Assembly: GCA_965202745.1 (NCBI GenBank)
Contig: CBDBCB010000012.1
Coordinates: forward strand, 18,463 to 82,462
Source: Alphaproteobacteria bacterium
GTDB taxonomy: Bacteria > Pseudomonadota > Alphaproteobacteria > Bin95
Reading direction: 5' to 3'
DNA length: 64,000 nucleotides
Shown: in pieces, positions 9,150 through 34,958 of the stretch
How the letters are laid out: each line of letters opens with the position of its first letter
How positions within the stretch are numbered: position 1 is the stretch's first letter
Program-made: the position numbers and the translations under genes
Notes under the pieces: generated by a model
Told to the model about the DNA's origin: nothing
Seen by the model: only the letters and a program-made list of their open reading frames with translations
Databases searched by the model: none

Positions 9150-10715
9150 CTAGTTGTCCCATCCTGGGAGCCAATTCACAGAAAGGCCGCTGGAGACCTC
9201 TCCAGCGGCCTTTTTCTGTGCGTCGATCATCGCTGTTTCGTCAATCAGATCAAAGGGTTGCTTCAGAGCGACCGAGAGCTCACCGTCGGCCCAGGAGCAG
9301 TTCGAAACAAGAAAGTTGAGAAGCCGCCGTTTTTCGCGGGAATCCTGCTTTTCGAAAAGCCGCTGGGCATTCTGCGCCAGTTCGATAAGGCGCACGCCTT
9401 CTTCCAGATAGGAACGGTCGGCACCCTGGTGCCGTTCGATGTCGCGCAGGCATCGTTCCTGCTCGGCCCGCCACTCCTCTGACATTTTCTCGAAGAATGA
9501 CGCGTCGATGGTGCCGTCGAGCTTGTCCATATAGGCGGCGTGGATTCGGTTCTGGAGCCGGTCGTATTCGGCGCGCAATTTCTCGATGGCTGCCTCGTGC
9601 TCGCGTCTCTCGTCGGCGTGGCTGTCGTGAAGGGCGTCGCGCACCCAGTCGAGCACCTTGTCGTCGAACGCCAGCCGTCCGAGGAGTGTGCCGAACTTCT
9701 CTTCGAGTACCTCTTCCCGGACATAGGGCTCGTCGCATTTCCCCTTATAGCCGGTGCAGTGATAGTAGATGTAGCGCTGCTTCTTGATCTCGCCGACCAC
9801 CGAGCAGCCGCAATGGCCGCAGGCGATCAGGCCCGAGAAGGCGAAATCATGCTTCACGCGGCGGTGCTTGCTGGCGTAGCGGCCGTCCATCATGTCCTGC
9901 ACCCGCTCCCACAGATCCCGCGTGACCAGGGGTTGGTGGCTGCCCTGGTAGAGACGGCCGTTCCATTCGAACTCGCCCATGTAGAGCCGGTTGCGCAGGA
10001 TCTTGTGCACCGTGCTGGTCGGCACCGCCTTGCCGCTCTTGCGATAGCTGAAACCGTCGGCGCGCGCCCTCTTCGCCACGTCACGCAAAGCCAGTCCGCC
10101 GGCCGCATACCGTTCGAACATCCTGGTCACATGCGGCGCGACTTCCGGATCGGGCTCGATCACACGCTTGCCGTTGGCCCCGTCCACGTTGCGGTAGCCG
10201 AGCGGCGCGGCAGAGGGCCAGATGCCCTGCTCGGCCTTTTCCAGCATGCCCTTCCTGGTCTCCTCCGATAGGTTGTCGATGTAGTTCTTCGCCATCAGCA
10301 CCTTGATGCCGTGCATGAACTTTTCCGACGACTTGGAATCGCGCGACAGGATCGCCCCTTCCTTGACGAGATGGATCTCGACATCGAGATCGTCGAGCAT
10401 CACCCAGTCCTTGAGATTGCGGTAAAGCCGGTCGGTCTTCTCGACCAGGATGACCCGGACCCGGGGATTGGCCCGCAGAAACGCGATCATCTCGGAGAAG
10501 CTGGTCCGGCCGGTCTGCTTCGCCGTCTCCACGTCGACATATTCCTGAACGGCGGACAGCCCTTCGCGCGCGGCATACTCCTTCAACAGCTTCAGCTGTG
10601 CGGGGATCGAGTAGCCCTCCTTCTCCTGCTCCTTGGAGGAGACGCGGGCATAGAGCACCGCGCGCGTGCTCGGTGGCGGGGCGGAGGGCCTGGGTGTGAG
10701 AGTTCCGGCCAGCAT
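9150..10715 (-). CDS. large serine recombinase (integrase)
   Basis: Resolvase catalytic region AVLYARVSSKEQ. Recombinase domain and zinc ribbon CGHCGC...YYHCTGYKGKC. Coiled-coil C-terminal region. Confidence 0.9.
   Translation of the reverse strand: MLAGTLTPRPSAPPPSTRAVLYARVSSKEQEKEGYSIPAQLKLLKEYAAREGLSAVQEYVDVETAKQTGRTSFSEMIAFLRANPRVRVILVEKTDRLYRNLKDWVMLDDLDVEIHLVKEGAILSRDSKSSEKFMHGIKVLMAKNYIDNLSEETRKGMLEKAEQGIWPSAAPLGYRNVDGANGKRVIEPDPEVAPHVTRMFERYAAGGLALRDVAKRARADGFSYRKSGKAVPTSTVHKILRNRLYMGEFEWNGRLYQGSHQPLVTRDLWERVQDMMDGRYASKHRRVKHDFAFSGLIACGHCGCSVVGEIKKQRYIYYHCTGYKGKCDEPYVREEVLEEKFGTLLGRLAFDDKVLDWVRDALHDSHADERREHEAAIEKLRAEYDRLQNRIHAAYMDKLDGTIDASFFEKMSEEWRAEQERCLRDIERHQGADRSYLEEGVRLIELAQNAQRLFEKQDSREKRRLLNFLVSNCSWADGELSVALKQPFDLIDETAMIDAQKKAAGEVSSGLSVNWLPGWDN
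9182..9216 (+). terminator. rho-independent terminator-like hairpin inside the 3' end of the recombinase ORF
   Basis: Perfect arms AAAGGCCGCTGGAGA / TCTCCAGCGGCCTTT with a 2-nt loop, followed by a T-run on the plus strand. Confidence 0.5.
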
Positions 10716-10758: not shown

Positions 10759-12246
10759 TCACAAGTTCTGCGTGACCTCCTTCAGCGCGACCTTCAGCAC
10801 GTTTTCACGCCACGGCCTGAAACGCGATAGAAGTCGACCTTCGTTCTCGTTGTAGAAAAATACGAACCCGTCCTCCGCGACTGGCACCAACGCAGTGCGA
10901 ATCTCGCCCTCCTCGTCGGTATCCTTGAATTCGAGGAACGGTGCGCAAATGAGGCTACCATTGAACGGTTTGCCGATTCCGTGGATCGCAAAAACGAGCT
11001 GCCCACGACGTGACCATCGCATGTTGAGCGCCACCCATGACCGGTACTCGCTGGTATCTGCGAAGTAACCGATGTAGTGCCTGGCATTCTCCACGATCTG
11101 CGCCCGGAAATAATGACCCGTTTTCTGCCCACTCCGATTGACAAACGCATTCGCCCCATCCGAAATTCGCTTAAGTGCGCCTCCCACTACGGGTGTAATC
11201 GCTTTCAGCCTGTCCTCGATGTCGGCTTCGATGACATAAGCAAGCTCAAAAACACTTCTCAGCAAGGCAAGCTTGTCAGCCGCTACCTTTTCGGCAGCTT
11301 TGAGCAGGACGTCGAGTGCAGACTGCACATCCTCCTCGACCAACACCGCTTCGGAGATTGCGGTGGCTTTGCGGAACTGGGCAATCTGTAGCTTTGCGAT
11401 CAAATCGACCAGCGGCTTCAACTTGCCGTTATCTGCTGCCTCGAGTGAATGAAGGTAAGCTCGCCTGTCGTCCCGCGTCACGACGAGCGGAAAAAGGTCG
11501 TCCTTCACCAGAATAAGTGAGGCAATGGCACGAGCTACGCGGCCGTTGCCGTCTTGGAACGGATGGATCTGTGTGAACCGATGGTGAAACCATGCAGACT
11601 GAACCTCGCTGGGCACGTCTCGCGACACATGTTCCGCATGCATCGCAATCAAGCGATCCATTTCAGAGCCGACTTGCTCGGGCGGGCAATAGGTGAAGGT
11701 GATTCCGTCCCGAACGGGATAATTGGCCTGCGTCTTCCAGGCCCCCTTGATCAACGGGATGTCTACATGGTTCCCCTGCGTGTCGAGACCCTCCGTCGTG
11801 TCCTGGCTCCGCAAGAGGGCGGTGTGGAGTTCCTTGATGTACGATGCAGAAAGACTGCGGTCGCTCTTCACGAAATCAAAAACACCGTCCAGCGCGTCCT
11901 TCTGGTCGCGCAGGAGCTGTAAGACGTACTCGCGCGGTTTGTTGGTCGAACCGTGGCTCAGCAGCTCAGCCTGAAATCCGTACTCGATCAGCGTTTGGGT
12001 AACGCCGCGCTCGATTTCATAGAGGTTTTCGACCACACCGGTTTCGATAGCCCATTCACGGCTCAACTTCTCGGTGAAATCCAATAACTGGGCGCTGTTC
12101 GCGAGCCGTGTGCGTTGATCAATCCAAACGGCCTTGATGCCCGGCACTTGGGAGGCGCTCAGTTCGTCGGGATCGACTTCTAGATCTGTGATCCCGGTTT
12201 CGAAATTCCAAATCGGTTGCTCGGTCATGTCGTGTTTTTCTTTCAT
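10759..12246 (-). CDS. Fic family protein (class II, canonical active site)
   Basis: Canonical Fic motif HPFQDGNGRVARA. Upstream inhibitory-type motif TGVVEN ((S/T)xxxE(G/N)). Its ATG overlaps the hsdS stop (ATGA). Confidence 0.85.
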   Translation of the reverse strand: MKEKHDMTEQPIWNFETGITDLEVDPDELSASQVPGIKAVWIDQRTRLANSAQLLDFTEKLSREWAIETGVVENLYEIERGVTQTLIEYGFQAELLSHGSTNKPREYVLQLLRDQKDALDGVFDFVKSDRSLSASYIKELHTALLRSQDTTEGLDTQGNHVDIPLIKGAWKTQANYPVRDGITFTYCPPEQVGSEMDRLIAMHAEHVSRDVPSEVQSAWFHHRFTQIHPFQDGNGRVARAIASLILVKDDLFPLVVTRDDRRAYLHSLEAADNGKLKPLVDLIAKLQIAQFRKATAISEAVLVEEDVQSALDVLLKAAEKVAADKLALLRSVFELAYVIEADIEDRLKAITPVVGGALKRISDGANAFVNRSGQKTGHYFRAQIVENARHYIGYFADTSEYRSWVALNMRWSRRGQLVFAIHGIGKPFNGSLICAPFLEFKDTDEEGEIRTALVPVAEDGFVFFYNENEGRLLSRFRPWRENVLKVALKEVTQNL

Positions 12247-13043
12247 TCTGCCGCCTCCGTGGCGGGAGTGGCGGCGGGGTCCGGCGCTTCGAGGAGGAGA
12301 GCTTCGAGGAGGCGGGCGCGGTGGTTGTCGCGGGTCGCCAGCGCGGCCTCCAGCCGATCCAGCAGCGCCATCAGCTCCTCCACCCTGGCCACGATCCGCC
12401 GCTGCTCGGCGAGGGGTGGGATACCCAGAAGGAGCGGATAGGCATCTGCCCTGCTAAGGCCCGGCTTCACACCTTTGCCAAGCGTATCGAGGTCCAAGGC
12501 CTGGAGCGTCAGAAACAGATACCGCAGACTGAAGAAGCGCGGGGCCTCGACATAGTAGGCAACGTCCGTCGTCCACGATGGGCCATAGCAGAGATTGAGC
12601 GCGCCGGCCGACCCTTTGCGACCAACGATGATCGCAGGCTCTTCGGTGAGCGGTGCCGTGGTGTAACCGACAATTCCATTGGAGCCGAATACGGGAACCG
12701 GGCCATCGTCCAAGCGTTCGCTTGCCTTCATGCCCTTCCCGTACTTGAAGTCTAAGACGCGCCCGAGCGAGACACACGCCCAAGACGCGGGAATATCAAA
12801 AGGCGACTCAAGTTCCTCGCCATTGGCGAGGTCGCGGGGCTTCCTGATCTCCCCCGCATTCACCAGCCGCACCTTCTCCGCCGCGATCCGCTTCAGCAAC
12901 TCCGACGCCGGTTCGTCGCTTGCGTCCTGCGCCACGAGATTCCCCCGCACGGCGAGGTCCAGCACGAAGCGGCGCAGGCGGGGAACCGCGTCGGGCGCTT
13001 CGGCCACCTGTTCGTAGAGGGCGAGCAGACGGTCGGCGTTCAT
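12243..13043 (-). CDS. hsdS: type I restriction-modification specificity subunit, half-size (single TRD)
   Basis: 266 aa with one target-recognition domain flanked by helical conserved regions (LPPLAEQRRIVARVEELMALLDRLE). ATGA overlaps with hsdM upstream and the Fic gene downstream. Confidence 0.8.
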   Translation of the reverse strand: MNADRLLALYEQVAEAPDAVPRLRRFVLDLAVRGNLVAQDASDEPASELLKRIAAEKVRLVNAGEIRKPRDLANGEELESPFDIPASWACVSLGRVLDFKYGKGMKASERLDDGPVPVFGSNGIVGYTTAPLTEEPAIIVGRKGSAGALNLCYGPSWTTDVAYYVEAPRFFSLRYLFLTLQALDLDTLGKGVKPGLSRADAYPLLLGIPPLAEQRRIVARVEELMALLDRLEAALATRDNHRARLLEALLLEAPDPAATPATEAAE

Positions 13044-14557
13044 CGGAGTGATTTTCCTGCCGCCTCATCGTGTCCGCCGTGCGGTTCCCGCCCGGCGGGA
13101 TGATCCAGGAGCGCCTCGGACAGGATCGCCTTCAATTGGTCTCGGATCGCCGCCACATCGGCCTCGGCGGCGGTCAGATCCTGCAGCAGCGTCTCGGGGT
13201 CGCCGTGATCTTCGGCCACACTGTGGGGGTTCTTGATGTCGAGGTTGTATCCTCTCGCCTTCACCTCCTCGGCGCTGACCTTCCAGGCGCGCTCGGACTC
13301 TACCCGCCCCTCGCGCTGCGGCCCGCCCCACCAGGCGGCGCAGTCGGCCAGATGCTCCAGCCGGATGGGCCGGGTCATGGAATAGGCCTTCTGCCCCTCT
13401 GGCACCTGATGTTCCCAGAACCAGATGTCCTGCGTCGGCGCGCCCTTTTCGAAGAACAGCAGGTTGGTGCCGATGGAGGCATAGGGCCGGAACACCGAAT
13501 TGGGCAGGCGCACGATAGTGTGGAGGTTGCATTCCTTCATCAGGTGTTCCTTGAGCCGGGTCTTGACGCCCTCGCCGAACAGCGAGCCGTCGGGCAGGAC
13601 CACGGCGGCGCGTCCGCCGCGTTTCAGCAGGCGCACGATCAGGGCGAGGAAGAGGTCGGCGGTTTCCCGCGTGCAGAAGTGCTGCGGGAAGTTGCTCTCG
13701 ATGCTGTCCTCCTCCTTGCCGCCGAAAGGGGGGTTGGTGAGCACGATGTCCACCCAGTCCTTCTGTTTCCAGCTGATATAGGGCCGTGCCAGGGTGTTGT
13801 CGTGGCGGACGAAGCTCGGGTCCTCGATGCCATGCAGCAACATATTGGTAACGCAGAGCATGTGGGGAAGCTGCTTCTTCTCCACCGCGCGGAGGCCGGC
13901 CTGCATCGTGGCCACGTCCTCGGGGCGCTTGACGTAATTCGCCTGCATGTGCCGGATGGCGCAGGTCAGGAAGCCGCCGGTGCCGCAGGCGGGGTCGAAC
14001 AGCGTCTCGCCCGGATGCGGGTCGATCATCTGGACCATGAAGGAGGTGACGGCGCGCGGCGTGTAGTATTCGCCCGCGTTGCCAGCCGATTGCAGGTCGT
14101 TGAGGATCTTTTCGTAGATGTCGCCAAAATGCTGGCGCTCGGACAGGTCGTTGAAATCGACCTGGCTGATCGTGTTGACCACCCGCCGCATCAGCCGGCC
14201 GGACTTCATGTAGTTGTAGGCGTCCTCGAACACGTCGCGCACCACGCGGCGGCGGTCGCCGAGCCGGTCCGAGATTTGCAGATTCTTCAGCGCCGGAAAC
14301 AGGTCGTCATTGACGAAGGCCAGCAGGGCGTCGCCGGTCATGCCCTCCGGGTCCGCCGCCCAGCTACGCCACCGGTAGGCATCCGGGATCGGGGAGGCGT
14401 AGTTGTCGCGCATCAGCTCCAGTTCCTGGTCCTGGTCGTCGATGATCTTGAGGAAGAACAGCCAGGTGATTTGGCTGATGCGCTGCGCATCGCCATCGAC
14501 GCCGGTGTCCTGGCGCATGATGTCCTGAATGGATTTGACGAGGGTGTGGACGATCAT
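13040..14557 (-). CDS. hsdM: type I R-M N6-adenine DNA methyltransferase subunit
   Basis: Motif I FDPACGTGGFL, motif IV NPPFGG, and an HsdM N-terminal domain. Confidence 0.92.
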   Translation of the reverse strand: MIVHTLVKSIQDIMRQDTGVDGDAQRISQITWLFFLKIIDDQDQELELMRDNYASPIPDAYRWRSWAADPEGMTGDALLAFVNDDLFPALKNLQISDRLGDRRRVVRDVFEDAYNYMKSGRLMRRVVNTISQVDFNDLSERQHFGDIYEKILNDLQSAGNAGEYYTPRAVTSFMVQMIDPHPGETLFDPACGTGGFLTCAIRHMQANYVKRPEDVATMQAGLRAVEKKQLPHMLCVTNMLLHGIEDPSFVRHDNTLARPYISWKQKDWVDIVLTNPPFGGKEEDSIESNFPQHFCTRETADLFLALIVRLLKRGGRAAVVLPDGSLFGEGVKTRLKEHLMKECNLHTIVRLPNSVFRPYASIGTNLLFFEKGAPTQDIWFWEHQVPEGQKAYSMTRPIRLEHLADCAAWWGGPQREGRVESERAWKVSAEEVKARGYNLDIKNPHSVAEDHGDPETLLQDLTAAEADVAAIRDQLKAILSEALLDHPAGREPHGGHDEAAGKSLR

Positions 14558-14560
14558 GGT

Positions 14561-17005
14561 TCAGGCAGTCTCCTGGTAGAGTGCGTTCTGCAATTCGTGG
14601 ACGGCCTTCTCGAACCCCGCCTTGTTGCCGAACGCGTTGATGAGTTGGACAACGCTGCCCATTTCGGTGAAGGGCGTCACCTTCAGCACGGTGGCGTCGT
14701 CGAGATTGAGCACACCTTCGTCGGCGTACTTGGCCAACAGGGCGTCGAGCACGGCGCGGGCCTGGTCGCCGTACTTGGTGAACACATCGCGCTTCTTGAC
14801 GTTCTCCGCCCGCTCGCGCCGGGTCAGCGGCTTGGCGTCGAAGGCGATATGGCAGATCAGGTCGAAGGGATCGAGGTCTTTGCCCAATTCCTCGGCGATG
14901 GGATCGAGCGGCAGCCCTTCGGCCTTCAGTTCCTCGACGATGGCCTGCTTGCGTGTCGAGCTCTTCCAGCGTTTGAGGAAGTCGTCCAGGCTGGCGAAGC
15001 GTTTCCTGAGTGCCTTCTTGGTGAAGTCGCGCAGGGACTCGGTGACCAGCTTGCCGTTCTCGTCAAGATACTTCACAAGCTCGGCGATGATGGTCGCGTC
15101 GACACCGTCCACATAGACCTTGCGCATGCCGCCGCCGGTGAGCGGCAGGGTGATGTCGGGCGGGCCGTCGACGATGGTTTCGTCATCGCCCGGTTCCGAC
15201 GGAATGCCGTCTTCGCCGGGGGGCGGTGCATCGTCTGGCGGCGTCATCGGGTCGTCGTCCCCGGGCTGGTAGATCTGCACCGGCTCGCCGTCGAAATCCG
15301 GGTCGGCGAAATGGCTGGTCGCACCCCGGAAATCCATCAGCGTGAAATAGAACTTCCTCGTGTCCTCGTGAACGCGGGTGCCGCGCCCGACGATCTGCTT
15401 GAACTCGGTCATGGAGCCGACCTCGCGGTCGAGCACGATCAGCCGGCAGGTCTGGGCGTCGACGCCGGTGGAGAGCAGCCGCAAGGTGGTGACGAGCACC
15501 GGATATTTCGATTCCGGGTCGATGAAGTTGCCGAGCTGGTCCTGGCCTTCCTTGTCGCTGCCGGTGATCCGCATGACGTAGCGGTGATTCTCCTCCACCA
15601 GATCGGCGTTCTCATTGATCAGCGCCTGGCGCATGCGGGCCGCGTGCTCCTGGTCGACGCAGAAAATGATCGCCTTCTGGAAGCGGTCGCCGCTTTCCTT
15701 CAGGAACGCCGTGACCTTGCCCGCGACCAGCTTGGTGCGGTCGTCGAGCACCAGGGTGCGGTCGAAGTCCTTGGTGTTGTAGATGCGGTCCTCGATCTCG
15801 TTGCCCTCGCGGTCCAGTTGCCCCTTTTCGGGGCGGTAGCCCTCGACGTCGCGGTCGACGTGAACCTTGATGACCTTGTAGGGGGCGAGGAAACCGTCGC
15901 GGATGCCCTGTTTCAGGGAGTAGGTGTAAACCGGCTCGCCGAAGTAATGGATGTTGGAGACGTACTTGGTTTCCTTGGGTGTGGCGGTCAGGCCGATCAG
16001 GGTGGCGGACGAGAAATAGTTGAGGATTTCCCGCCAGGCCGAATCCTCGGCGGCGCTGCCGCGATGACACTCGTCAATGACGATCAGGTCGAAGAAGGTG
16101 GGAGAGAACTCTCGGTAGATCTTCTGGCGTTCCTCCGGCCCGGTGATCGCCTGATAGAGCCCGAGATAGATTTCGTAGGCGGTGTCGATCCGCCGCTTGC
16201 CGTCGATGGCCTTGGTCAGGTCTTCGGACGTACCGTCGGCGCGTTCGATGGTCTTGGACTTGGTCGAGAGCTTGGCCATGGCCGGATCGAACGGGCGGAA
16301 GTCGTTGAGCATGGTCTGGTCGATCAGGACGTTGCGGTCGGCGAGGAAAAGGATGCGCTTCCTGCGGCCCGCCTTCCACAGCCGCCAGATGATCTGGAAG
16401 GCGGTGTAGGTCTTGCCGGTGCCCGTCGCCATGACCAGCAGCACGCGGTCGCGGCCCCGGGCGATGGCCTCGATGGCGGCGTTGATGGCGTTCACCTGGT
16501 AGTAACGCGGAGTCTTGCCGCTGCCGTCGTCGTGGTAGTCTTGGAGCACGATCTCCTCGGCTTCCGGCGTCAGGCCCTTCCAGGCGCGGAACCGCGCCCA
16601 CAGGTCGGCGGGCGACGGAAACGAGTCGTTGTCCAATGTGGATTCCTTCTCCGGCGCCGTGCCTGTCCGGTCGTGGAAGACGAATCCGTCGCCGTTCGAC
16701 GCGAACACGAAGGGGATGTCCAGGGTCTCGGCATATTCCAGCCCCTGCTGCATGCCGTCGCCGATGGCGTGGGTGTTGTCCTTGGCCTCGATCAGCGCGA
16801 TGGGGATGTTGGACTTGTAGTAGAGGATGTAATCGGCGCGCTTGCCCTTGCCCCGACTGACCAGCTTGCCGCGCACGATGATGCGGCCCTTAGTGAAGCT
16901 GACCTCCTCGCGGATTTGCGTCACCTCGTCCCAGCCGGCCTTCCTGACCGCCGGGGTGATGAACTTGGTGCAGATGTCGCGTTCGGAGAGGCTCTTCTTG
17001 TCCAT
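14561..17005 (-). CDS. hsdR: type I R-M endonuclease/translocase subunit (EcoEI/type IB-like C-terminus)
   Basis: N-terminal PD-(D/E)xK (ADYILYY...IEAKD), helicase motif I MATGTGKT, motif II VIDECHRGS, and a C-terminal EcoEI-R-like helical domain. Confidence 0.92.
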   Translation of the reverse strand: MDKKSLSERDICTKFITPAVRKAGWDEVTQIREEVSFTKGRIIVRGKLVSRGKGKRADYILYYKSNIPIALIEAKDNTHAIGDGMQQGLEYAETLDIPFVFASNGDGFVFHDRTGTAPEKESTLDNDSFPSPADLWARFRAWKGLTPEAEEIVLQDYHDDGSGKTPRYYQVNAINAAIEAIARGRDRVLLVMATGTGKTYTAFQIIWRLWKAGRRKRILFLADRNVLIDQTMLNDFRPFDPAMAKLSTKSKTIERADGTSEDLTKAIDGKRRIDTAYEIYLGLYQAITGPEERQKIYREFSPTFFDLIVIDECHRGSAAEDSAWREILNYFSSATLIGLTATPKETKYVSNIHYFGEPVYTYSLKQGIRDGFLAPYKVIKVHVDRDVEGYRPEKGQLDREGNEIEDRIYNTKDFDRTLVLDDRTKLVAGKVTAFLKESGDRFQKAIIFCVDQEHAARMRQALINENADLVEENHRYVMRITGSDKEGQDQLGNFIDPESKYPVLVTTLRLLSTGVDAQTCRLIVLDREVGSMTEFKQIVGRGTRVHEDTRKFYFTLMDFRGATSHFADPDFDGEPVQIYQPGDDDPMTPPDDAPPPGEDGIPSEPGDDETIVDGPPDITLPLTGGGMRKVYVDGVDATIIAELVKYLDENGKLVTESLRDFTKKALRKRFASLDDFLKRWKSSTRKQAIVEELKAEGLPLDPIAEELGKDLDPFDLICHIAFDAKPLTRRERAENVKKRDVFTKYGDQARAVLDALLAKYADEGVLNLDDATVLKVTPFTEMGSVVQLINAFGNKAGFEKAVHELQNALYQETA

Positions 17006-18525
17006 CAGCTCCCCCTCTCCGCTCCGCCGGGCATCTTGAGCCGCCTGCCTTCCTCCTCGGCGACGGCGGCGTCGAGGAAGGCGTTGCAGTCCTCCAGTTC
17101 GCGCCGGGTCTCCGCGACCGAGCGCCAGTCGACGGCGGCGGTCCAGCGCTGGGCGTAGTCGAGCATGCGGATCAGCGGTTCCGGCCGTCCGCTTTGCGAC
17201 AGCGCCTTGAGGGCCGAGAGGTAGTTGACGCGATAGACCGTCGGGATGACGATGCGCTCCTCCTCCCCGGCGGCGATCAGTTCGGCGTTCATCAGCACGC
17301 GAGCGGTGCGCCCGTTGCCGCCGGCGAAGGGACGAACCTCGGAGACCAGGAACATGATGAACACGGCGCGCTGGAACGGCGTTTCCAGGCTGCGACAGAG
17401 CGTGAAGCCCTGGTCCAGGGTGCCTGCCACCAGGTCGGGGGTGACGAAGACGGTCGAGCCCGCGCGGTTCTCCGATAGCTTGAACATGCCCGGCCCCTTG
17501 TCGGGACGGCTCTCCATGATGGCGGCGTGGCGGGCCTTGAGCAGCCGAGTCAGGTCCTCGCCGCTTTCGGGCGTGCGCGTTATCTCCCGGGCGTCGGAGA
17601 CGATGCGCCAGGTGCCGAGCACGTCGTGGGCATCCTGGGGCCGCTCGTTGGGGATGACGCCGCGAAAGACGATGTCGGCGGCCTCCTCGACGGCGAACTC
17701 GGTGCCCTCGATGAAGTTCGAAAAATAGGCCTCGAAGAAGGCAAGCGTGGCGTCGCCTTCCGGGCCTCGGGCCGGGGCGATGCGGGCCAGCGGCGGATGA
17801 TCGCGCAATGCCGCGTGCAGGCTCTGGAACAGCGCCATCCGGTCCGGGTCGAACGGCCGCCCTTTCTGGCGGGCAATGGCGGCGGGTGCGCTCAGTTCGG
17901 ACTCTCGAATGCCCAGCAGGGAACCGATCAGGGCGTCGAGCTCGGCCGCCTCGTCGTCCATATCGAGCGCCTTGCCGGCGGTGCGGATCTCGTCGCGCAG
18001 GCGGTTGGCGGCGTCCTCGCCGGATCGCCGGATCAGGGTGTCCAGCCGTTCCTCGAACTCGTTGCGCGACAGGGTGCGGCCGCCTAGGCCGCCGCGCGCG
18101 CGTGACGGGCGCATGTTTTCCAGATAGGCTCGTGCCGTCGAGCTCAGGAACAGGCCGGCGATGAAGGGCCGGTCCGTGGCAAGAGGGGCAACGCCGCGTC
18201 GAGGGCGCAGGGTGTGCCCCGGCAGCTTGATGTCGCGCCCCGTGTCGGAAACCAGGCAGACCGAGCCGTCATCGGCCGGAGCGTTTTCCAGCGCCGTGCG
18301 GTCGGCGATCAGCGCACCGGGAAAGTAACCGGCGACGATATTCCAGAGATTGCGCCCGACGACCGCGTCGGGCGGATCGGCCAGATTTCGGGTATAAAGC
18401 CGGGACGCGAGCTTGCGCAGCCTGCCCGCCTTGACTGCGCGCGATACCTCACGGCTGATCGCCGTATCCGACACGAAGGCCTCGGGCATCTCGTCGATAG
18501 CTTTGGCAGCGGAAATTTCCGGCAT
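17005..18525 (-). CDS. Fic-fold protein with degenerate active-site motif and an N-terminal AbiEi-like wHTH region
   Basis: RPFAGGNGRTAR replaces HxFx(D/E)GNGRxxR, so the catalytic His is Arg. It retains SNFIEG ((S/T)xxxE(G/N)). Its stop overlaps the hsdR ATG (TGATG). The AbiEi-like N-terminal assignment is by resemblance only. Confidence 0.7.
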   Translation of the reverse strand: MPEISAAKAIDEMPEAFVSDTAISREVSRAVKAGRLRKLASRLYTRNLADPPDAVVGRNLWNIVAGYFPGALIADRTALENAPADDGSVCLVSDTGRDIKLPGHTLRPRRGVAPLATDRPFIAGLFLSSTARAYLENMRPSRARGGLGGRTLSRNEFEERLDTLIRRSGEDAANRLRDEIRTAGKALDMDDEAAELDALIGSLLGIRESELSAPAAIARQKGRPFDPDRMALFQSLHAALRDHPPLARIAPARGPEGDATLAFFEAYFSNFIEGTEFAVEEAADIVFRGVIPNERPQDAHDVLGTWRIVSDAREITRTPESGEDLTRLLKARHAAIMESRPDKGPGMFKLSENRAGSTVFVTPDLVAGTLDQGFTLCRSLETPFQRAVFIMFLVSEVRPFAGGNGRTARVLMNAELIAAGEEERIVIPTVYRVNYLSALKALSQSGRPEPLIRMLDYAQRWTAAVDWRSVAETRRELEDCNAFLDAAVAEEEGRRLKMPGGAERGS

Positions 18526-18621
18526 TAACGGACCTCCGGGTGCGAGAGTACGGAAAATATCTCGATTAAGGAAGGATTTTTGAGAATTTTGTCGATTTTA
18601 GTCATGGGAAACGAAAGAAAC

Positions 18622-18646
18622 TGGATTCTGGATTCCCGGTGGATTC
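18622..18646. promoter_or_regulatory. three TGGATTC direct repeats in the AT-rich leader of the Fic/R-M operon (candidate operator)
   Basis: cTGGATTCTGGATTCccggTGGATTCcc, about 100 bp upstream of the Fic-like ATG at 18525, inside a 215-bp intergenic region. Confidence 0.3.
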
Positions 18647-18740
18647 CCAAAAAATCCGGGCTGTTGCTGGCGATCCACCGCGCCTCACCCGCCCGTATGG
18701 AATTTTCGCGAGGAAGGACCCGTGCATTTTGCGAAACGGA

Positions 18741-19550
18741 TCAGTGTCCACCCGCCTCCCGTCGCAGGTCCTGGAGCCGCAGCAGCATGGCCAGGGTGCG
18801 CTCCAGCTTGCGGTCCAGATGCACCTCGTAACGGGCCAGGCGCGACAGCTTGTCGGGATCGAGTGACTGGCCGAACGCCTGCGCCCGGATGAGCTGACGG
18901 TTTTCCAGCTCCTTGCGTCGCTGGACGTACCACGGCCGAAGGTCCTTCTCGATAAACCGGCGAAGACCCTCTGCATCGGCAGTGAACGGGTTCTCGTCCT
19001 CGTCGAAATCCTCCGGATCGCGGGAAATCATGTCCTCCCACCATTCGCGGGTATCGGCCCGGAGCGCTGCGACCGCTTGCTCGTAGGCTTTGGGTTTCCC
19101 CGCACCCAGGATGGTGACGGCCTTGGCGGTCATGCCCTCGTCCTCGTCCAGGTCGGAAGATTCCTCTGCCGTTTCCTCTTGCGTGTTGCGGATCGCATCG
19201 ACGACCCGCTCGATCTGCTTGCCTCCATCCAGATGCACCAGCGCGGCCTTGACCGTGCCCCAATAGGGTTCGGTGGCGTCCTCAAGACCGTGTTGATGAG
19301 CGGCCGCTTCGGCGAGCCGCAGCCGGCGTTTCCGCCACAGAATACCGGCCAGTTCTTCGACCAGGTGCTCCTCGGTCGGCCCGTTCGTGCGATGCTCGGA
19401 AACCAGGGATGCCACCAGGGCGGCGTATTCGTCGGCGTCTTCCCAGGGCAGCACGGTGTAACTGGAGAGAACGCCGTGCTTGAGGGCGTTGAAGCGGGGG
19501 ATCTCGGTCCCGGCGCTCTCCGCCGGCAGGAAGTCTCGGGTCTCGGTCAT
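18741..19550 (-). CDS. hypothetical protein (acidic, helical, 269 aa)
   Basis: The coding-looking part of ORF 18741..20396 starts at MTETRDFLPAESAG (ATG 19550). This ATG overlaps the stop of the upstream gene (ATGA). Confidence 0.6.
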   Translation of the reverse strand: MTETRDFLPAESAGTEIPRFNALKHGVLSSYTVLPWEDADEYAALVASLVSEHRTNGPTEEHLVEELAGILWRKRRLRLAEAAAHQHGLEDATEPYWGTVKAALVHLDGGKQIERVVDAIRNTQEETAEESSDLDEDEGMTAKAVTILGAGKPKAYEQAVAALRADTREWWEDMISRDPEDFDEDENPFTADAEGLRRFIEKDLRPWYVQRRKELENRQLIRAQAFGQSLDPDKLSRLARYEVHLDRKLERTLAMLLRLQDLRREAGGH

Positions 19551-20206
19551 GGCCAGAAGGTTCCTTTCCGTTTGGGGGTGTCGATGCGGTTCAGCAGCTT
19601 TTCGGCGCGAATCAGAAAAGCCTCGTCGGCAAACCGCTCTGCCTCGTAGACTTCCTCGCGCAGGCGCTCGTAGGTGCGCCGCCACATGCCCGTGGGACGC
19701 GGCGGGAACGGCATCGCCATGCCGGGTTCGCCGCCAAGGCGTATGCGGATTTTGTTGGCCCGGCGCAGTGCCCGGTCCCACATGCCCTCGCTCTGGCTGG
19801 CGTGCGCCAGGCGATAGCAATGCCGGCACAGAAGATACCGTCCTGGCCCGTGCAGCTTGACGACGCGCCGGCCGCAGGGGATCCCGTTCACGACACCGGG
19901 GCAGATGAAATAGGGTCGCATCCCGCCGAACCGGCAGGGAACTTGGACGATGCGGACGGTCTCCTCCACATCTTCCCATTCGCCGCCCGCGATGCGCACC
20001 CGATAGGACAGGTGCAGCCGATCTCCCTCGGCGCGCAGGTTGATGGACGCCACCTTCTCGCCGTCGCGGCTCCACTGCCAGCCGCCTTGCCACCCGGAAC
20101 GCAGACAACCCTCCCGGTGGAGCCGGTTCACGTCGATGGAACGGCAGGACTCCACCGTATCGTGCCCCAGGCCCCACGACCGCCCCGATCCGAGACCACC
20201 CATCAT
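19547..20206 (-). CDS. hypothetical protein with Cys-rich zinc-ribbon-like motifs
   Basis: 219 aa with CRFGG...FICPG...CGRR...CRHC. ATGA overlaps on both sides. Confidence 0.6.
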   Translation of the reverse strand: MMGGLGSGRSWGLGHDTVESCRSIDVNRLHREGCLRSGWQGGWQWSRDGEKVASINLRAEGDRLHLSYRVRIAGGEWEDVEETVRIVQVPCRFGGMRPYFICPGVVNGIPCGRRVVKLHGPGRYLLCRHCYRLAHASQSEGMWDRALRRANKIRIRLGGEPGMAMPFPPRPTGMWRRTYERLREEVYEAERFADEAFLIRAEKLLNRIDTPKRKGTFWP

Positions 20207-20736
20207 GTGCTCCCGTTTTTTCCGAAATCGTTTGGAAAGTCGGTCGGTTTTTCGACGCCCATGGCGACAAGAGCGGTGACAGCGTCAGCTTTCCGGGCCT
20301 GGTGCCAACCGGCCCAGCAGCGGGAATGCAGCCAGGCATGGCCATGGGTATCGGTCCCGAAGGGCAACAGGGGATCGTTGGCGCTGTCACCACCATCGCA
20401 GGCGAGGCACCGGTCGGGCGAGGAGGTCAGCGGGTGCCGGTTCATCCATTCGGCGACGCAACAGGCAAAGGCCCGTACTTCGGCCTCGGGGCGCGGGAGG
20501 CCGCCATCGAACTCGGCGATCCCGGCCCGCTCGTCGAAAAACACCCGCCAGTCTCCGGCATTCCACCCGTCGTCACCAGGACGCAGCAGGGCAACGATCC
20601 CGGCCTTGTTGCGGGACAGGGCGTCGAGAATGACATTCGACGGCGGAGACGAGGCTTCGAGAACCAGGTCGTCACCATGAAGGTCAATCCCGACACCGGC
20701 AGCCCGTGCCGCCCGGAGGGCTTCCACCACCGTCAT
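20203..20736 (-). CDS. hypothetical protein (177 aa, Cys/His/Trp-rich C-terminal half)
   Basis: ATGA overlap with the P-loop NTPase gene stop. Contains CLACDGG...HGHAWLHSRCW. No family recognised. Confidence 0.55.
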   Translation of the reverse strand: MTVVEALRAARAAGVGIDLHGDDLVLEASSPPSNVILDALSRNKAGIVALLRPGDDGWNAGDWRVFFDERAGIAEFDGGLPRPEAEVRAFACCVAEWMNRHPLTSSPDRCLACDGGDSANDPLLPFGTDTHGHAWLHSRCWAGWHQARKADAVTALVAMGVEKPTDFPNDFGKNGST

Positions 20737-22748
20737 AGCGTCGCCCTCCAGCCCTGCTGTCCGTTTTCTTCCGGATCGGATTGCGATGGATGTTTTGCGT
20801 CCGTTGCGTCCGCACCGTCCGTATCCTTGGTTTTCAAGGGATTGGCGCTGACGGATGAAACCGTGTCGTTCCGTCCTGCGCCCGCTCCAGCGTCCGCAGT
20901 GCCGTCAACCGTCCGCATGGTGGTGTCGCGGAAAAAGTTGGCTCCGTTGCCGCTCGGCGGGATCGCGGACGATGCAGACGGTACGGACGGTTGGGCCCCG
21001 CCGCTATCCGGATTGGCAAGACTTCCCTTGGCCGTCATGTGGATGATCCGGGTGCGTGCCCGGCCTTCCTTGGCGTAATCGATCTCGATGCCGACCTTGC
21101 GCAGGAAGGCGGCGGCCCGGCGCAGGCGGCCGGACAAGGCCCGAGGGTTGGTGGGCCAGGTCTTGGACTTGGCGACACGCTCCCCGGCTTCCTCGGCAAG
21201 GGCGCCCAGAAGGTCCGTCGCCGTTCCGGTCCACTCCGTCCGCTCCACCATCACAGCGCGCACCGCCGCCGCCACGGGATCTGCTTCGATCACATTCTCG
21301 ACCGCCTCGTCCCGGTTTTCGCAATAGGCCGACCAGAAGGCGCCGGCGGGCCAGATGGCGGTCTCGCAGGCCGATGCCCACAGGGCGAAGTCCGCCATGC
21401 GGGGCAGCTTCGGCAGATGCGTGTCCGGGAGACGCTTCAGGCCTTCCGCCACCGCGTCGAGAAGCACCCCCAGTATTCTCGGCCTTTCGGACTCGAAGGC
21501 GGCCCAAAGTTCCGCCTCTGGGCGCCGGCTGTCCTCGGGAATAGCCTCCAGGGTCAGGAACACCGCCCGGTCGGCGAGATCGGGCCTTGTCACGATGTCC
21601 TCGATGCCGTTGAGGATCACCGGACGGGCGGCGTCGAACAGCACCTCGTCCTGGTCGGTATAGAGCTGACGGACCGCGAATCCGCCGCCGGTCGCCAGCC
21701 GACAGAGCGTGTCCGATATCCACGCCGGCAGGCCCGAGACGTTGTCGAAAGCGAGCACATGCCCGTTGTTGGCGGCGATGAAAAGGTCGCGGTCTTCGCG
21801 CGGCAGAGCGCGCAACGGTGCTGTGTTGGGATCGAGCAAAGACCGCAGGATGGCCGAAAAGGTGGACTTGGCCGAGCCCTGCTCGCCCGACAGCACGATC
21901 ACCGGATAGGGGCCGCGATTGCGCAGCACCGCCAGCGCCCAGGCCACCACGAGCACGAAGTCGGCACGGGACGGCACGTTGAGGAAGGAGCGCAGGGCAT
22001 CAACCGATCCACCCGGAATCGGGACCGGCAAGGGTTTCATTCCGGCGGCACGGCGAAACCGCACCGGCGGTTTTTCGACCACCTGCCACCCGGTCGTCGC
22101 AATCTCGATGGCGCGCCAGGCTTCGTCGCCGAGGTCGAGATAGAGTTTGCCATCGATCCCGCCGACCCGAATGAACACCGGCAGTTCCGGTGCATCGAAA
22201 TGCGCCTTCGCCTCGACCACGTTGAGCGCGGATTGCAGGGCCTCCGAACTCGGCGCGCCGCCCGTCGCCTCGAAGAACCGCCGCGCCAGCCAGCGCTTGA
22301 ACCCCTTGGTGCGAACCGGCCAGGTTTCCCGGTGCCCGTTGATGTCCAGATCGGCGAAAGCCGTGCCATCGGCGGAATGGAACAACTCGGCGGTCTCGGA
22401 AAGATCGATCAGGATGTCGGCCTGGGTCGGCCCCCGGCCGCCGTCTCCGCTTTCCTCCATGATCGCCTCGTCGAGGGAAGTCACGCGGCATCCGGCTTTC
22501 TTCAGCTGCGCCCTCAACGCCTCGAAGCCGGCGCGATCCTCCTTCTTCATCGCCGACAGCCGCGCCAGCACGTCGGGCGTGAACGGCGCGCCGGGATCGT
22601 CAGCCACCCGCTCGACAAGCCCGTCCAGCGGATCGGGGATTTCCTCGGCGCCGGCGATGGCAGCCGCTATCGGGTTTTCATCATCATCCGGGATTCCGTC
22701 CGGAACCGCATCCGGGAACACGGTCTCGTCGACCTTGTCCATTGTCAT
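20733..22748 (-). CDS. P-loop NTPase, primase-associated helicase-like (VirE/D5-type Walker A)
   Basis: Walker A VLSGEQGSAKSTF. 671 aa. Translationally coupled (ATGA) to the toprim gene upstream. Confidence 0.65.
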   Translation of the reverse strand: MTMDKVDETVFPDAVPDGIPDDDENPIAAAIAGAEEIPDPLDGLVERVADDPGAPFTPDVLARLSAMKKEDRAGFEALRAQLKKAGCRVTSLDEAIMEESGDGGRGPTQADILIDLSETAELFHSADGTAFADLDINGHRETWPVRTKGFKRWLARRFFEATGGAPSSEALQSALNVVEAKAHFDAPELPVFIRVGGIDGKLYLDLGDEAWRAIEIATTGWQVVEKPPVRFRRAAGMKPLPVPIPGGSVDALRSFLNVPSRADFVLVVAWALAVLRNRGPYPVIVLSGEQGSAKSTFSAILRSLLDPNTAPLRALPREDRDLFIAANNGHVLAFDNVSGLPAWISDTLCRLATGGGFAVRQLYTDQDEVLFDAARPVILNGIEDIVTRPDLADRAVFLTLEAIPEDSRRPEAELWAAFESERPRILGVLLDAVAEGLKRLPDTHLPKLPRMADFALWASACETAIWPAGAFWSAYCENRDEAVENVIEADPVAAAVRAVMVERTEWTGTATDLLGALAEEAGERVAKSKTWPTNPRALSGRLRRAAAFLRKVGIEIDYAKEGRARTRIIHMTAKGSLANPDSGGAQPSVPSASSAIPPSGNGANFFRDTTMRTVDGTADAGAGAGRNDTVSSVSANPLKTKDTDGADATDAKHPSQSDPEENGQQGWRATL

Positions 22749-23644
22749 TGCCGGCCCTCCCGGTTGCGGAGCGCCTGGGCGGTCAGCATGTCGTTGAAGT
22801 CCTGCCCGCGCGGCGGCCGGACGATGCGCACGCGCCGGCCCTTCCGTTGCCAGCGCAGGGCGCAGTCGCGGGCGGCGGCCTCGCCGGGATCGTCTCCGTC
22901 GGCCAGAACGATCACCTCGCGCACATCGCCGGGCAGGTCGAGCGCCCGCAGCCCGGAGGTGGACAGCGCCGCCCAGGTGGGGTTTCCCGTTGCGTGCATG
23001 GCCGCGAGGCAGGTCTCGATGCCTTCGCCGACCATCAGCAGGTCGGAGTGCGCCGCAAGGCGGACCGCCCCGCCCCGACAGGGACCGAGCATCATCTTCT
23101 GCGGATCGACCGGCGCCTTGCCACTGCCGTCGTGCCCCAGAAACGTGCGGTGGATGGCCAGCGGGGCATCGTCGGGACCACGGGAGACGAGCGCCACCAT
23201 GGCGGGCCAGGTCCCGCCCGAGGGGTGCCTCAATCCGCCGTGAAACCGCAAGGCCGATGAGCCCTGCAGGCGCAGGCCACGCGATTGCAGGTAGTCTTCG
23301 GCCAGGGTGTTCGAGGCCGAGACCGCCGCCCGCCAGATGCGGAGCGCGTATTCCGTCCTGTCCGAGTCGCCGCGTTCCGGCGGCGTGTTTTTTGGTTGGC
23401 GGACCTTGACGGCCCGGGACCGATCAAATTGCCGTCCGCGCTGGTCCCACAAGCCACGGGCGCGCAGGGCGTCGATCAGCTGGGCCTGGTCGCATCCGGC
23501 GTGGCAGCGCAGCAGGACCTTGCCGTCCTTGCCCGTCGACAGGGACAGGCTGGGATTGCGGTCGTCATGGGCGGGACAGCGGGCGATCCAGCCGCTCCCG
23601 ATTTTGCGCCCGCCGAGGGCCTTGGCGATGGGTTCAGCGGTCAT
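22745..23644 (-). CDS. toprim-domain primase-like protein with N-terminal zinc finger
   Basis: CPAHDDRNPSLS...RCHAGC zinc-binding motif. Toprim Glu (MVGEGIETC) and DxD (LADGDDPGE). Confidence 0.8.
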   Translation of the reverse strand: MTAEPIAKALGGRKIGSGWIARCPAHDDRNPSLSLSTGKDGKVLLRCHAGCDQAQLIDALRARGLWDQRGRQFDRSRAVKVRQPKNTPPERGDSDRTEYALRIWRAAVSASNTLAEDYLQSRGLRLQGSSALRFHGGLRHPSGGTWPAMVALVSRGPDDAPLAIHRTFLGHDGSGKAPVDPQKMMLGPCRGGAVRLAAHSDLLMVGEGIETCLAAMHATGNPTWAALSTSGLRALDLPGDVREVIVLADGDDPGEAAARDCALRWQRKGRRVRIVRPPRGQDFNDMLTAQALRNREGRQ

Positions 23645-23930
23645 GGCACCCCTCCTTGTCGTCAGGGATGGCCGCGCCGGTATTGTCGTTGGCGGGCACC
23701 GGCGGTTCGGCCCGCGACCACTCGGCCAGAACGGAAAAGAAACCGGCGACGTTGTCGGCGATCTGTTTTGCCTCGTCGCGGCTCAGGTCGCGTCCGATGC
23801 GCGGTTGCCAGACCTCACGGGTTCGTTCGATCCGGTTGTCATCCAAATTGTCGTTTGCAGCTTTCACCGAATATCTCACGGCCGGCTTTCCGCCGCTCCG
23901 TGCCTCTGATCTTCGGCCTCGGATTCCCAC
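23634..23930 (-). CDS. hypothetical small protein
   Basis: 98-aa ORF overlapping the toprim gene start by 11 nt. Start codon uncertain. No motif recognised. Confidence 0.4.
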   Translation of the reverse strand: MGIRGRRSEARSGGKPAVRYSVKAANDNLDDNRIERTREVWQPRIGRDLSRDEAKQIADNVAGFFSVLAEWSRAEPPVPANDNTGAAIPDDKEGCHDR

Positions 23931-24004
23931 CGATAACGTCGGATCGTATCGTCATTTGCATATCCGGCGTCCCCATCCTAGGGATCGCCCGCTCGCGCAC
24001 CTTG

Positions 24005-24220
24005 TCAGCGCGGCAGGTCGTCCTCCGGTATGGTGAACTTGTGGGACTTGCCTGCCTCGATCACGAGGTCGCGCTTGTTGTTCTTGCCGATGGCGCTGGT
24101 GATGGCGCACCGGAAATGTCCGTGCCGCAAACCGTCCATGACGACTTCGAACAGCCGGTTGAGGGCTTCACGGGCCTGCGGCCCGCAGGGGGTCGAGTTG
24201 ATGTCGTTGTGATCATGCAT
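24005..24220 (-). CDS. hypothetical small protein (71 aa)
   Basis: ORF in series with its neighbours, overlapping the upstream gene by 8 nt. Confidence 0.45.
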   Translation of the reverse strand: MHDHNDINSTPCGPQAREALNRLFEVVMDGLRHGHFRCAITSAIGKNNKRDLVIEAGKSHKFTIPEDDLPR

Positions 24221-24482
24221 TGTGCAGCAGCGCCTTCATGTCCTTGATGATGGAGGAGAACGCCAGGGGCGGAACGGTGGTCCGGTCACCGAAAAAAGAC
24301 AGTACATCGGCCTCCCGGCCGTGCCTGTCCTCGAAGACGAACACTTTTCGCCGGCCTTCGGCACGCATCTCCAGCAGGGCGTAGCCCGTGCACCGCAGGA
24401 AGCAGGCGAGATAAAAGTCCCGCGTCTCGAAGGGCCGGCTCCGCTGCGGCATCTGCCTTGCCGTTTCCTGTACAGTTGTCAA
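24213..24482 (-). CDS. hypothetical small protein (DUF5659-like by resemblance)
   Basis: FETRDFYLACFLRCTGYALL...RKVFVFED pattern resembles the DUF5659 family; assignment from memory only. Confidence 0.5.
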   Translation of the reverse strand: MTTVQETARQMPQRSRPFETRDFYLACFLRCTGYALLEMRAEGRRKVFVFEDRHGREADVLSFFGDRTTVPPLAFSSIIKDMKALLHNA

Positions 24483-24507
24483 TTCACATACTCCTTAAAA
24501 AAGGGGT

Positions 24508-25290: not shown

Positions 25291-25329
25291 TCCTTCATCC
25301 TCATCTGCATCTGCCGCCAGTCAGGGCTC

Positions 25330-25686: not shown

Positions 25687-25786
25687 GGTTTCGCTCCTCC
25701 AATGTAGAGCGATTACATAACACTATACGAGACGATTGTCAATATGTTGCGGTGACCGCCGTCACCTTGCCGAAAAGTGGTGAAAT

Positions 25787-30700: not shown

Positions 30701-30763
30701 TGGACCTGTCGCGGTTTGATGCCGCTCCTTTGATAGCATTTACTGCAACAAAGGAGACTGACT

Positions 30764-34932: not shown

Positions 34933-34936
34933 TAGA

Positions 34937-34958
34937 TAAGCCCTTAAATATTAATTGC
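34937..34958. repeat. right terminal inverted repeat TAAGCCCTTAAATATTAATTGC
   Basis: Reverse complement GCAATTAATATTTAAGGGCTTA matches 32541..32562. Confidence 0.7.

Follow-up and report, generated by a model that had tools for sequence, protein, structure and literature searches.

Fic proteins form an established class of stand-alone defence genes and toxins, represented by SoFic (bioRxiv 10.1101/2022.05.11.491447; PMC12249575). Wild-type Sofic is toxic and a mutant in its catalytic His is inactive (PMC12249575), and SoFic has recently been reported to AMPylate EF-Tu (bioRxiv 10.64898/2026.07.09.737422). Type I restriction-modification (R-M) operons, for their part, commonly have genes for toxins or defence embedded in them (PMC11411939, PMC12255303, bioRxiv 10.1101/2024.01.29.577857). 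No description of an association between Fic and type I R-M or hsd genes turned up in a literature search. The window analysed here, a stretch of 64,000 nucleotides from an Alphaproteobacteria bacterium (contig CBDBCB010000012.1 of assembly GCA_965202745.1), contains a type I R-M operon with one Fic gene at either end. Its five genes are named, from 5' to 3', Fic1, hsdR, hsdM, hsdS and Fic2; positions are counted from the first nucleotide of the window, and loci elsewhere are designated by L numbers. Fic genes coupled to type I operons thus appear to be an undescribed variant built of known parts. The locus is a patchwork of known defence parts and no two-Fic machine, and the pairing of its two Fic genes is coincidental.

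The locus is proposed, with moderate confidence and largely by analogy, to be a layered defence in which type IB restriction is combined with Fic2 as a self-inhibited, stand-alone effector working in parallel to the R-M complex. The type IB system would cleave unmethylated incoming DNA as the first layer. The two Fics, unrelated class II genes without a separate antitoxin, would share the transcription and translational coupling of the operon. Fic2 would be an AMP-transferase under self-inhibition; set free when a phage infects the cell, it would AMPylate a host protein that is essential, possibly EF-Tu as in SoFic, with growth arrest as the abortive-infection second layer; it would act beside the R-M complex, free of its control. 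Fic1 would have entered as an autonomous gene whose promoter region now drives hsdRMS and, with its catalytic His and Asp lost, would be at most a non-catalytic reading frame here.

The operon and its two Fic proteins

The operon consists of five co-directional open reading frames (ORFs) on the minus strand, with exactly the limits that a sequence-only reading of this DNA had given them and with identities now backed by domain searches. Fic1 (17005-18525, 506 amino acids (aa)) matches Pfam Fic over residues 327-415 (E = 1.9e-9). The hsdR gene (14561-17005, 814 aa) encodes an EcoAI/type IB restriction subunit according to NCBIfam and Pfam, hsdM (13040-14557, 505 aa) an N6-adenine methyltransferase subunit with Pfam N6_Mtase and HsdM_N domains, and hsdS (12243-13043, 266 aa) a half-size specificity subunit with a Methylase_S match. 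Fic2 (10759-12246, 495 aa) matches Pfam Fic with E = 1.5e-17. The four junctions described earlier were all re-read in the sequence. Fic1 and hsdR overlap by 1 nt in TGATG, with GGGGGAG preceding the hsdR start; hsdR and hsdM are separated by a 3-nt gap, with AGGAG ahead of the hsdM start; hsdM and hsdS share ATGA; and hsdS and Fic2 share a further ATGA, with GGAGG ahead of the Fic2 start. A purine-rich, Shine-Dalgarno-like stretch is found ahead of every downstream start in the operon. Since hsdR starts inside the Fic1 stop codon, the operon seems to use the promoter region of Fic1.

The leader upstream of Fic1 (18526-18740, minus strand) has the expected length of 215 bp; its earlier description as AT-rich holds only relative to the operon (GC 49.8% versus 63.1%). 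The Fic1-proximal part of about 65 nt (about 18526-18590) contains a GGAGG ribosome-binding site, and in a six-locus alignment the last ~65 nt before the Fic1 ATG are kept despite differing upstream context, for example in L163 and L001. This 5' region moves along with Fic1 in every genomic context, so that the gene carries its own expression signals. A pattern scan of the leader gave no sigma-70-like promoter, a pattern that is uninformative for a GC-rich, non-enteric host, and terminator-like sites are not in excess (7 found versus 9.6 ± 3.3 in shuffled sequence). The five genes are presumably carried on a single transcript; the genes upstream of the leader, which belong to the backbone of a mobile element, are co-directional with the operon, so that read-through from this backbone is possible. 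GC content is 68.5% in Fic1, 63-65% in hsdRMS and 55.4% in Fic2, and these differences mark the operon as a mosaic.

All four motifs named in the sequence-only reading (SNFIEG, TGVVEN and the two active-site motifs) are present at the positions that it implied. The active-site motif of Fic1, RPFAGGNGRTAR, lies within 17293-17334 and departs from the HxFx(D/E)GNGRxxR consensus. The surrounding active-site loop, RPFAGGNGRTARVL (17293-17334, minus strand), contains three private replacements, H398R, D402G and M411L. They were identified against a set of 86 family members, comprising the window protein and 85 homologues from other loci that share 55-94% identity. H, D and M occupy these positions in 85 of 85 relatives, within HPFxDGNGRxxR, and likewise in 36 of 36 database homologues in a second alignment (A2). 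In the nucleotide alignment the corresponding codons have changed from CAY to CGT, from GAC to GGC and from ATG to CTG. The three replacements are the sole breaks among 109 Fic1 columns conserved in at least 97% of members, and they fall within 14 residues, a clustering with a chance of 0.005. The proposal that a degenerate Fic1 serves by design as regulator or adaptor does not hold, the replacements being private to the window copy. As every relative and database homologue keeps H and D, the loss is read as recent, and Fic1 is best described from these alignments as a recent, copy-specific catalytic inactivation of a normally active enzyme, with no designed adaptor.

Other parts of Fic1 are conserved. 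In the predicted inhibitory-helix motif SNFIEG (17704-17721, minus strand; residues 269-274, the core starting at about 327), every one of the 86 family members has S, N, F and G and all but one have E, while the fourth position is I, V or L. The need to translate hsdR, whose start lies within the Fic1 stop codon, may keep the Fic1 frame open, and inactivation by missense changes, not by truncation, would fit this need. Fic1 reaches 38.7 bits against Pfam Fic (gathering cut-off 24), and its closest PDB profile match is FICD/HYPE. Its N-terminal 268 aa gave nothing significant against Pfam, PADLOC and NCBIfam at E <= 5; the sole Pfam row for this region, DUF7696, has E 0.8, far below its cut-off. 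An AbiEi-like winged helix, considered as a candidate for the Fic1 N-terminus, found no support in the same three scans.

Fic2 possesses the canonical HxFx(D/E)GNGRxxR motif, HPFQDGNGRVAR (11530-11565, minus strand), with the catalytic His at residue 228, and no member of the 55-sequence family alignment departs from its H, D, G, N, G, R and R. On account of this canonical active site, Fic2 is likely the functional one of the two. Its candidate inhibitory-helix motif TGVVEN (12025-12042, minus strand; residues 69-74, the core starting at about 132) has T and E in 54 of 54 covering sequences, one of the 55 being gapped, and R, N or H at the last position. Both Fics are assigned to class II on the basis of an (S/T)xxxE(G/N) motif located N-terminal to the core in the same polypeptide. 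Fic2 reaches 64.7 bits against Pfam Fic (gathering cut-off 24), and its closest PDB profile match is again FICD/HYPE. A C-terminal region of about 200 aa is uncharacterised, and the C-terminal 220 aa gave nothing meaningful against Pfam, PADLOC and NCBIfam at E <= 5. AlphaFold2 models of the two Fics were poor (mean pLDDT 46 and 57, from alignments of 37 and 38 sequences), and Foldseek against PDB returned for both models just weak matches to FICD and to a C. difficile Fic (E of at least 7e-3). An AS1-like small antitoxin 3' of Fic2 was considered and rejected, as the 48-aa ORF of L159 and the 56-aa ORF of L081 are N-terminal fragments of HNH_2.

Distribution of the Fic genes and their linkage to R-M operons

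Fic1 homologues were surveyed across 80 genomes, one per species (Alphaproteobacteria, Gemmatimonadota, Acidobacteriota, Binatia and Gammaproteobacteria), and type I neighbours were screened within 10 kb by multi-family phmmer queries; queries limited to type IB had missed L003 and L002. No type I gene is found within 10 kb in 77 of the 80 loci, the exceptions being L002, L003 and L058. No neighbour of Fic1 is conserved across the 80 species, where the largest non-self neighbour cluster comprises 4 loci, and among 145 immediate neighbours tallied by Pfam no family occurs in more than 3 loci, most of them being metabolic genes. Fic1-family genes are also found on 21 plasmids in the plasmid collection. 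In L058, Fic1 shares an island with a type IB system, a DEAD helicase and a GmrSD_N gene. In L003 (369-8623, a Bryobacterales MAG) and L002 (8502-14038, a Rhodospirillaceae MAG), homologues with 77-79% identity immediately precede a type I operon that belongs to a different family, ordered hsdM-hsdS-hsdR and with a T1RH-like_C tail on HsdR; this arrangement represents an independent fusion of Fic1 to a type I operon. The 1-nt overlap of Fic1 with hsdR recurs in L081-L083, L085, L163 and L084. Members of the Fic1 clade with at least 86% identity keep this junction even beside decayed R-M genes: hsdR of L163 is cut by an insertion sequence (IS) to 168 aa, and 25 hsdR codons are left in L084. Fic1 is thus characterised by its distribution as an autonomous, normally solitary gene that appears to have been fused later to type I operons of two families.

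The same distribution bears on the possibility that Fic1 regulates the R-M system, for example by delaying restriction in a new host through modification of HsdR or action on the promoter; the dead window copy would then retain a scaffold or DNA-binding role. In its favour, Fic1 is fused stop-to-start to the first gene of two type I families (hsdR here; hsdM in L003 and L002), its promoter region heads the operon, hsdR as first gene would pose an establishment problem, and the dead copy is under purifying selection overall. We regard such regulation as highly improbable: 77 of 80 Fic1 loci are free of type I genes within 10 kb, the same R-M lineage does without Fic1 in L151, L159 and L164-L168, the N-terminal region matches no DNA-binding family in the Pfam, PADLOC and NCBIfam scans, and the loss of catalysis left the R-M genes intact.

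Within a clade with at least 74% identity, five lineages have Fic2 directly after hsdS, namely the window, L081/L082/L088, L151, L159 and L162. The arrangement stands behind a tyrosine integrase in L151, where it occurs on 16 contigs, and behind a FitA/PIN pair in L159; in L162 it is followed by a serine recombinase. The hsdS-Fic2 junction is ATGA in the window, L151 and L159, and a gap of 30 nt in L081 and of 13 nt in L162. Other members are encountered without adjacent R-M genes, with 74-80% identity in Rhodovulum (one strain, two contexts), in integrase islands and in L171, and further in L086 and L087, and type I linkage holds for about half of the lineages in this clade. Homologues of Fic2 with at least 70% identity number in the thousands. 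Some 60 distant homologues (30-45% identical) have no type I gene in the DNA recovered around them, 19 of 65 contigs having at least 3 kb upstream, and share no common neighbour. In the plasmid collection Fic2 is essentially absent, with one partial match at 35% identity. Its GC content is 52-57% in every context, whatever flanks it. From these features Fic2 may be described as a low-GC mobile cassette that is often, though not always, located after hsdS. The homologue in L171 (57-9324), 74% identical, is a moron in a lambda-like prophage and lies directly after the genes for terminase, portal, protease, major capsid and DUF6441.

The strongest form of linkage would be a PrrC-like guarding, in which HsdM/HsdS or the full R-M complex holds Fic2 inactive and a phage anti-restriction protein releases it. 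The recurrence of Fic2 after hsdS in five lineages, three of them with the 4-nt ATGA overlap, accords with this idea, as do a Fic2 divergence that tracks R-M divergence, the precedent of PrrC/EcoprrI (PMC12707154) and a C-terminal domain of ~200 aa that could dock. Homologues with 74-80% identity nevertheless exist without adjacent R-M (in Rhodovulum, integrase islands and as the prophage moron), no type I gene surrounds the ~60 distant homologues (many contigs being short), five R-M operons of the same lineage lack Fic2, the junction varies between loci, and Fic2 already carries a candidate intramolecular inhibitor. Guarding is for these reasons given a low probability, and Fic2 is unlikely to depend on the R-M complex in the manner of PrrC.

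A broader version of this idea, which we consider doubtful to a similar degree, makes Fic2 and the ancestral, active Fic1 functional partners of the R-M system, as Fic-fold counterparts of PrrC. Stop-start coupling would set the stoichiometry, the extra domains would dock to HsdM/HsdS or HsdR, and AMPylation of a host target or of HsdR would take place when restriction is blocked or the island is establishing. It draws on the position of Fic2 after hsdS in five lineages with tracking divergence, and on the fusion of Fic1 in two type I families. What the sequence-only reading had proposed about linkage stands in part. Physical coupling of Fics to a type I operon is real and recurs outside the window, and an enrichment next to type I R-M genes exists, although it is lineage-limited and facultative. 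Dependence on R-M is not supported, in view of the mere 3 of 80 Fic1 loci near type I genes, the stand-alone Fic2 homologues and the five same-lineage operons that lack both Fics.

Nor is there support for the two Fics as a functional pair, as had been supposed. No Fic2 homologue is found within 10 kb of Fic1 in any of the 80 Fic1 loci (0/80), and besides the window a single lineage (L081/L082/L083/L088) contains both genes. Relatives of the R-M lineage, with HsdR 76-93% identical, show that other genes occupy the same places. L164-L169, found through HsdR, lack both Fics, the closest five, L164-L168, being 76-81% identical. The slot 5' of hsdR is occupied by Fic1, a FitA/PIN toxin-antitoxin pair or a tyrosine integrase; the slot between hsdR and hsdM by FRG (L085, L166); and the slot 3' of hsdS by Fic2, HNH_2, DUF3800, an MBL-fold and NucS/DUF5655 pair, an unknown protein of 1148 aa or two small unknown proteins of 136 and 172 aa. 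The Fics thus appear, from this comparison of gene orders, as genes captured into accessory slots of variable content, one at either end of the R-M operon. HNH_2 (PF13391) is a recurrent cargo in this R-M lineage, repeatedly located 3' of Fic2 or hsdS; it is intact in L151 (9489-10409), frameshifted in L159 (9489-10410), truncated in L081 (18636-18806) and duplicated in L085 (17375-19233).

The Fics might instead be selfish, toxin-type cassettes that stabilise or ride the island with no role in phage defence. L159 has a classical FitA/PIN toxin-antitoxin pair in the slot of Fic1, both Fic families occur across phyla at high identity and on plasmids, islands and prophages, and Fic1 is inactivated here, as happens to costly toxins. 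Addiction of this kind is nonetheless improbable, because no separate antitoxin gene is present, the small ORFs of L081 and L159 being HNH_2 fragments; with no unstable antitoxin there is no obvious basis for post-segregational killing. Most Fic1 homologues, furthermore, stand among ordinary chromosomal genes, off mobile elements.

Several observations weigh against the layered defence proposed above. The dN/dS of Fic1 relative to L085 is 0.17, indicating purifying selection overall, so a retained non-catalytic role of Fic1 is conceivable from its sequence. The presence of Fic1 at the 5' end of two type I families looks more than chance and hints at an advantage. The window, L151 and L159 all have the ATGA overlap between hsdS and Fic2, and the divergence of Fic2 (80-82%) tracks that of HsdR/HsdM (79-85%), which fits a co-evolving unit as well as hitch-hiking. 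The poor structural models leave the accessory domains of both Fics unread. Enzymatic activity, trigger, target and anti-phage role would all be predictions from gene content, and the analogy with SoFic is a loose one, neither Fic being an orthologue.

If the layered defence is true, the locus is a worked example of type I operons on islands that collect interchangeable effectors at fixed slots. It adds two large, uncharacterised Fic subfamilies of ~500 aa, which are widespread among Alphaproteobacteria, Gemmatimonadota and Acidobacteriota, to the candidate defence cargo. The H398R/D402G loss would represent a natural experiment, suggesting that active Fic1 is costly and that its frame is needed for hsdR expression. 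It also teaches that comparison with relatives should come before any reading of design into a motif that is degenerate in one copy. If it were true instead that Fic2 depends on the R-M complex, the "guard" principle of PrrC would be extended to AMPylation.

The R-M genes, the mobile element and its surroundings

HsdR scores 1165.9 bits against NCBIfam NF046051 (EcoAI/FtnUII subunit R; cut-off 550), an equivalog-level match, and contains the Pfam domains HSDR_N, ResIII, Helicase_C and EcoEI_R_C. The R-M system is accordingly classified by these profiles within the EcoAI (type IB) family. HsdM matches Pfam N6_Mtase with E = 4e-70 and HsdM_N with E = 7e-14, and its translation contains TNPPFG and DPACGTGGF, including the catalytic motif NPPF. 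Only 2 private changes are found in HsdR at columns invariant in 10 relatives, and 5 in HsdM, in neither case above the numbers of the relatives. HsdM is 505 aa long versus 479-485 aa in eight relatives, owing to a C-terminal extension of about 20 aa. This extension, at the 3' end of hsdM (13040-13100, minus strand), overlaps the rearranged start region of hsdS.

HsdS possesses a single target-recognition domain (TRD) in 266 aa, while all relatives have two in 566-581 aa; the subunit is present at half the size of a type IB HsdS with its two TRDs. In an alignment with the L085 HsdS, roughly the first 85 aa correspond to the N-terminus of that protein and roughly the last 60 aa (ending EAAE) to its C-terminus. 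As its ends match both ends of two-domain relatives, this alignment suggests that the half-size protein may have originated by a deletion between internal repeats. Half-size HsdS proteins can dimerise, be functional and recognise symmetric targets, and the window HsdS, if functional, would probably act as a dimer on a symmetric (palindromic) target. The R-M system looks intact and is expected from its sequence to methylate host DNA and to cleave unmethylated incoming DNA. The dS relative to L085 is 0.15 for Fic1 versus 0.36-0.41 for hsdR and hsdM; this gap indicates different histories for Fic1 with the backbone and for the R-M genes, and points to possible recombination inside the operon. Relaxed selection on the window HsdR and HsdM, suggested by a three-taxon test in which amino-acid changes were in excess on the window branch (41 versus 9 and 50 versus 8), was rejected: the pairwise dS values of R and M are all about 0.36-0.49, a star-like pattern in which L081 is no valid outgroup, and the test is therefore invalid.

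These data also bear on whether the whole operon is drifting to loss, its accessory genes no longer mattering. A dead Fic1, a halved hsdS and an altered hsdM C-terminus coincide in this copy alone, and the close relatives L084 and L163 have eroded hsdR genes. Against such decay, which is very improbable, all five reading frames are intact, changes at invariant columns of HsdR and HsdM are no more numerous than in relatives, a half-size HsdS can function as a dimer, and Fic2 has every catalytic residue.

The operon is, by its gene content, predicted cargo of a mobile, integrative element that measures about 16.6 kb. One end of the element is formed by a large serine recombinase gene (9150-10715, minus strand; Pfam Resolvase, Recombinase and Zn_ribbon_recom), 43 bp from Fic2. 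The order hsdS-Fic2-recombinase is also found in L162, and a split homologue of the recombinase lies downstream in L159. Upstream of the leader, the island backbone (18741-25700, minus strand) encodes unknown proteins of about 269, 219, 177 and 671 aa together with three family-assigned genes on the same strand: a Toprim_3/DUF7146 primase-like gene (22745-23644) and an M78-like gene (24508-25290), both assigned by Pfam, and an HTH_31 repressor-like gene (~25330-25690) at the other end of the element. The 671-aa backbone protein has no family match. The same series of backbone genes precedes Fic1-hsdR in four other contigs (L081, L082, L083 and L085), and the backbone looks like that of a small integrative, possibly satellite-like, element. 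A mechanically called ORF of 551 aa (18741-20396, minus strand) covers the 218-aa, the 269-aa and part of the 177-aa genes called in relatives, and a 219-aa ORF (19547-20206, minus strand) lies inside it in another frame; the 551-aa frame is 80-87% conserved at the protein level in relatives, alongside the separate gene calls.

Past the element are found IS copies, a HerA-type gene and another methyltransferase; mobile and defence genes abound in this wider region. The HerA-type defence ATPase (29044-31011, minus strand) matches PADLOC HerA with E = 9e-224 and is flanked by IS genes at 25818-26867, 27465-28685 and 31036-31893; its usual partner gene may be disrupted here. At 33502-36516 (plus strand), a DNA methyltransferase gene of type II/III-like character (PADLOC E = 1e-54) precedes one for a protein of 494 aa that has no defence-family match. 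This gene pair lies in a low-GC stretch (49-50%) and may represent a second R-M system.

Comparison with described systems

The two Fics most resemble SoFic (Shewanella oneidensis; EcSofic in E. coli), a single-gene class II Fic with an intramolecular (S/T)xxxE motif and HxFxDGNGRxxR, whose genes, like those of both window families, mostly stand alone in variable contexts. Both match the PADLOC model SoFic (Fic2 with E = 1.7e-23, Fic1 with 1.1e-10) and PDC-S04, and annotation pipelines would probably call both SoFic-like. The inactivation of the toxin by loss of its His (PMC12249575) parallels H398R in Fic1. Orthology is contradicted by the NCBIfam model, against which Fic2 reaches 32 bits with a cut-off of 550 and Fic1 has no match. 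In the PDB profile search, SoFic chains match Fic2 only around the motif (E about 7e-5) and are absent among the Fic1 matches. The window Fics are also about 130 aa longer than SoFic, the extra region being N-terminal in Fic1 and C-terminal in Fic2; the window has no AS1-like small gene downstream, and its Fics are translationally coupled to a type I operon.

Compared with FicT/FicA of class I (VbhT/VbhA), the window Fics share a toxin fold that is, as predicted here, blocked by an inhibitory helix with a conserved Glu. In class I this helix is located on a separate small antitoxin, whereas each window Fic would carry it within its own chain, and the window has no ORF for a small partner. The R-M genes themselves correspond to EcoAI and type IB systems through an equivalog-level HsdR with EcoEI_R_C and through HsdM and HsdS with the domains of the family; they differ in the single TRD of hsdS and in the start of hsdR inside the Fic1 stop codon.

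PrrC/EcoprrI and RloC offer a further parallel, a latent growth-arresting enzyme within an hsdRMS transcription unit as a possible second line (PMC12707154). The enzyme there is an ABC-ATPase anticodon nuclease, and here it has the AMP-transferase fold of Fic; the window Fics are located at the ends of the operon and not between hsd genes. PrrC is almost exclusively embedded in R-M loci (bioRxiv 10.1101/2024.01.29.577857), while both Fic families are mostly found without R-M genes. Finally, DarTG2 with RptR (EPEC), TgvAB on VPI-2 of Vibrio cholerae and the 'guilt-by-embedding' candidates are independent modules inserted into a type I operon on an island, co-transcribed with it and working at its side (PMC12255303, PMC11411939). 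The window operon resembles them in that its R-M lineage carries alternative cargo, including FRG, HNH_2, DUF3800 and MBL/NucS-like genes, and is distinguished by a cargo that consists of Fic, is placed at both termini and has one copy catalytically dead.

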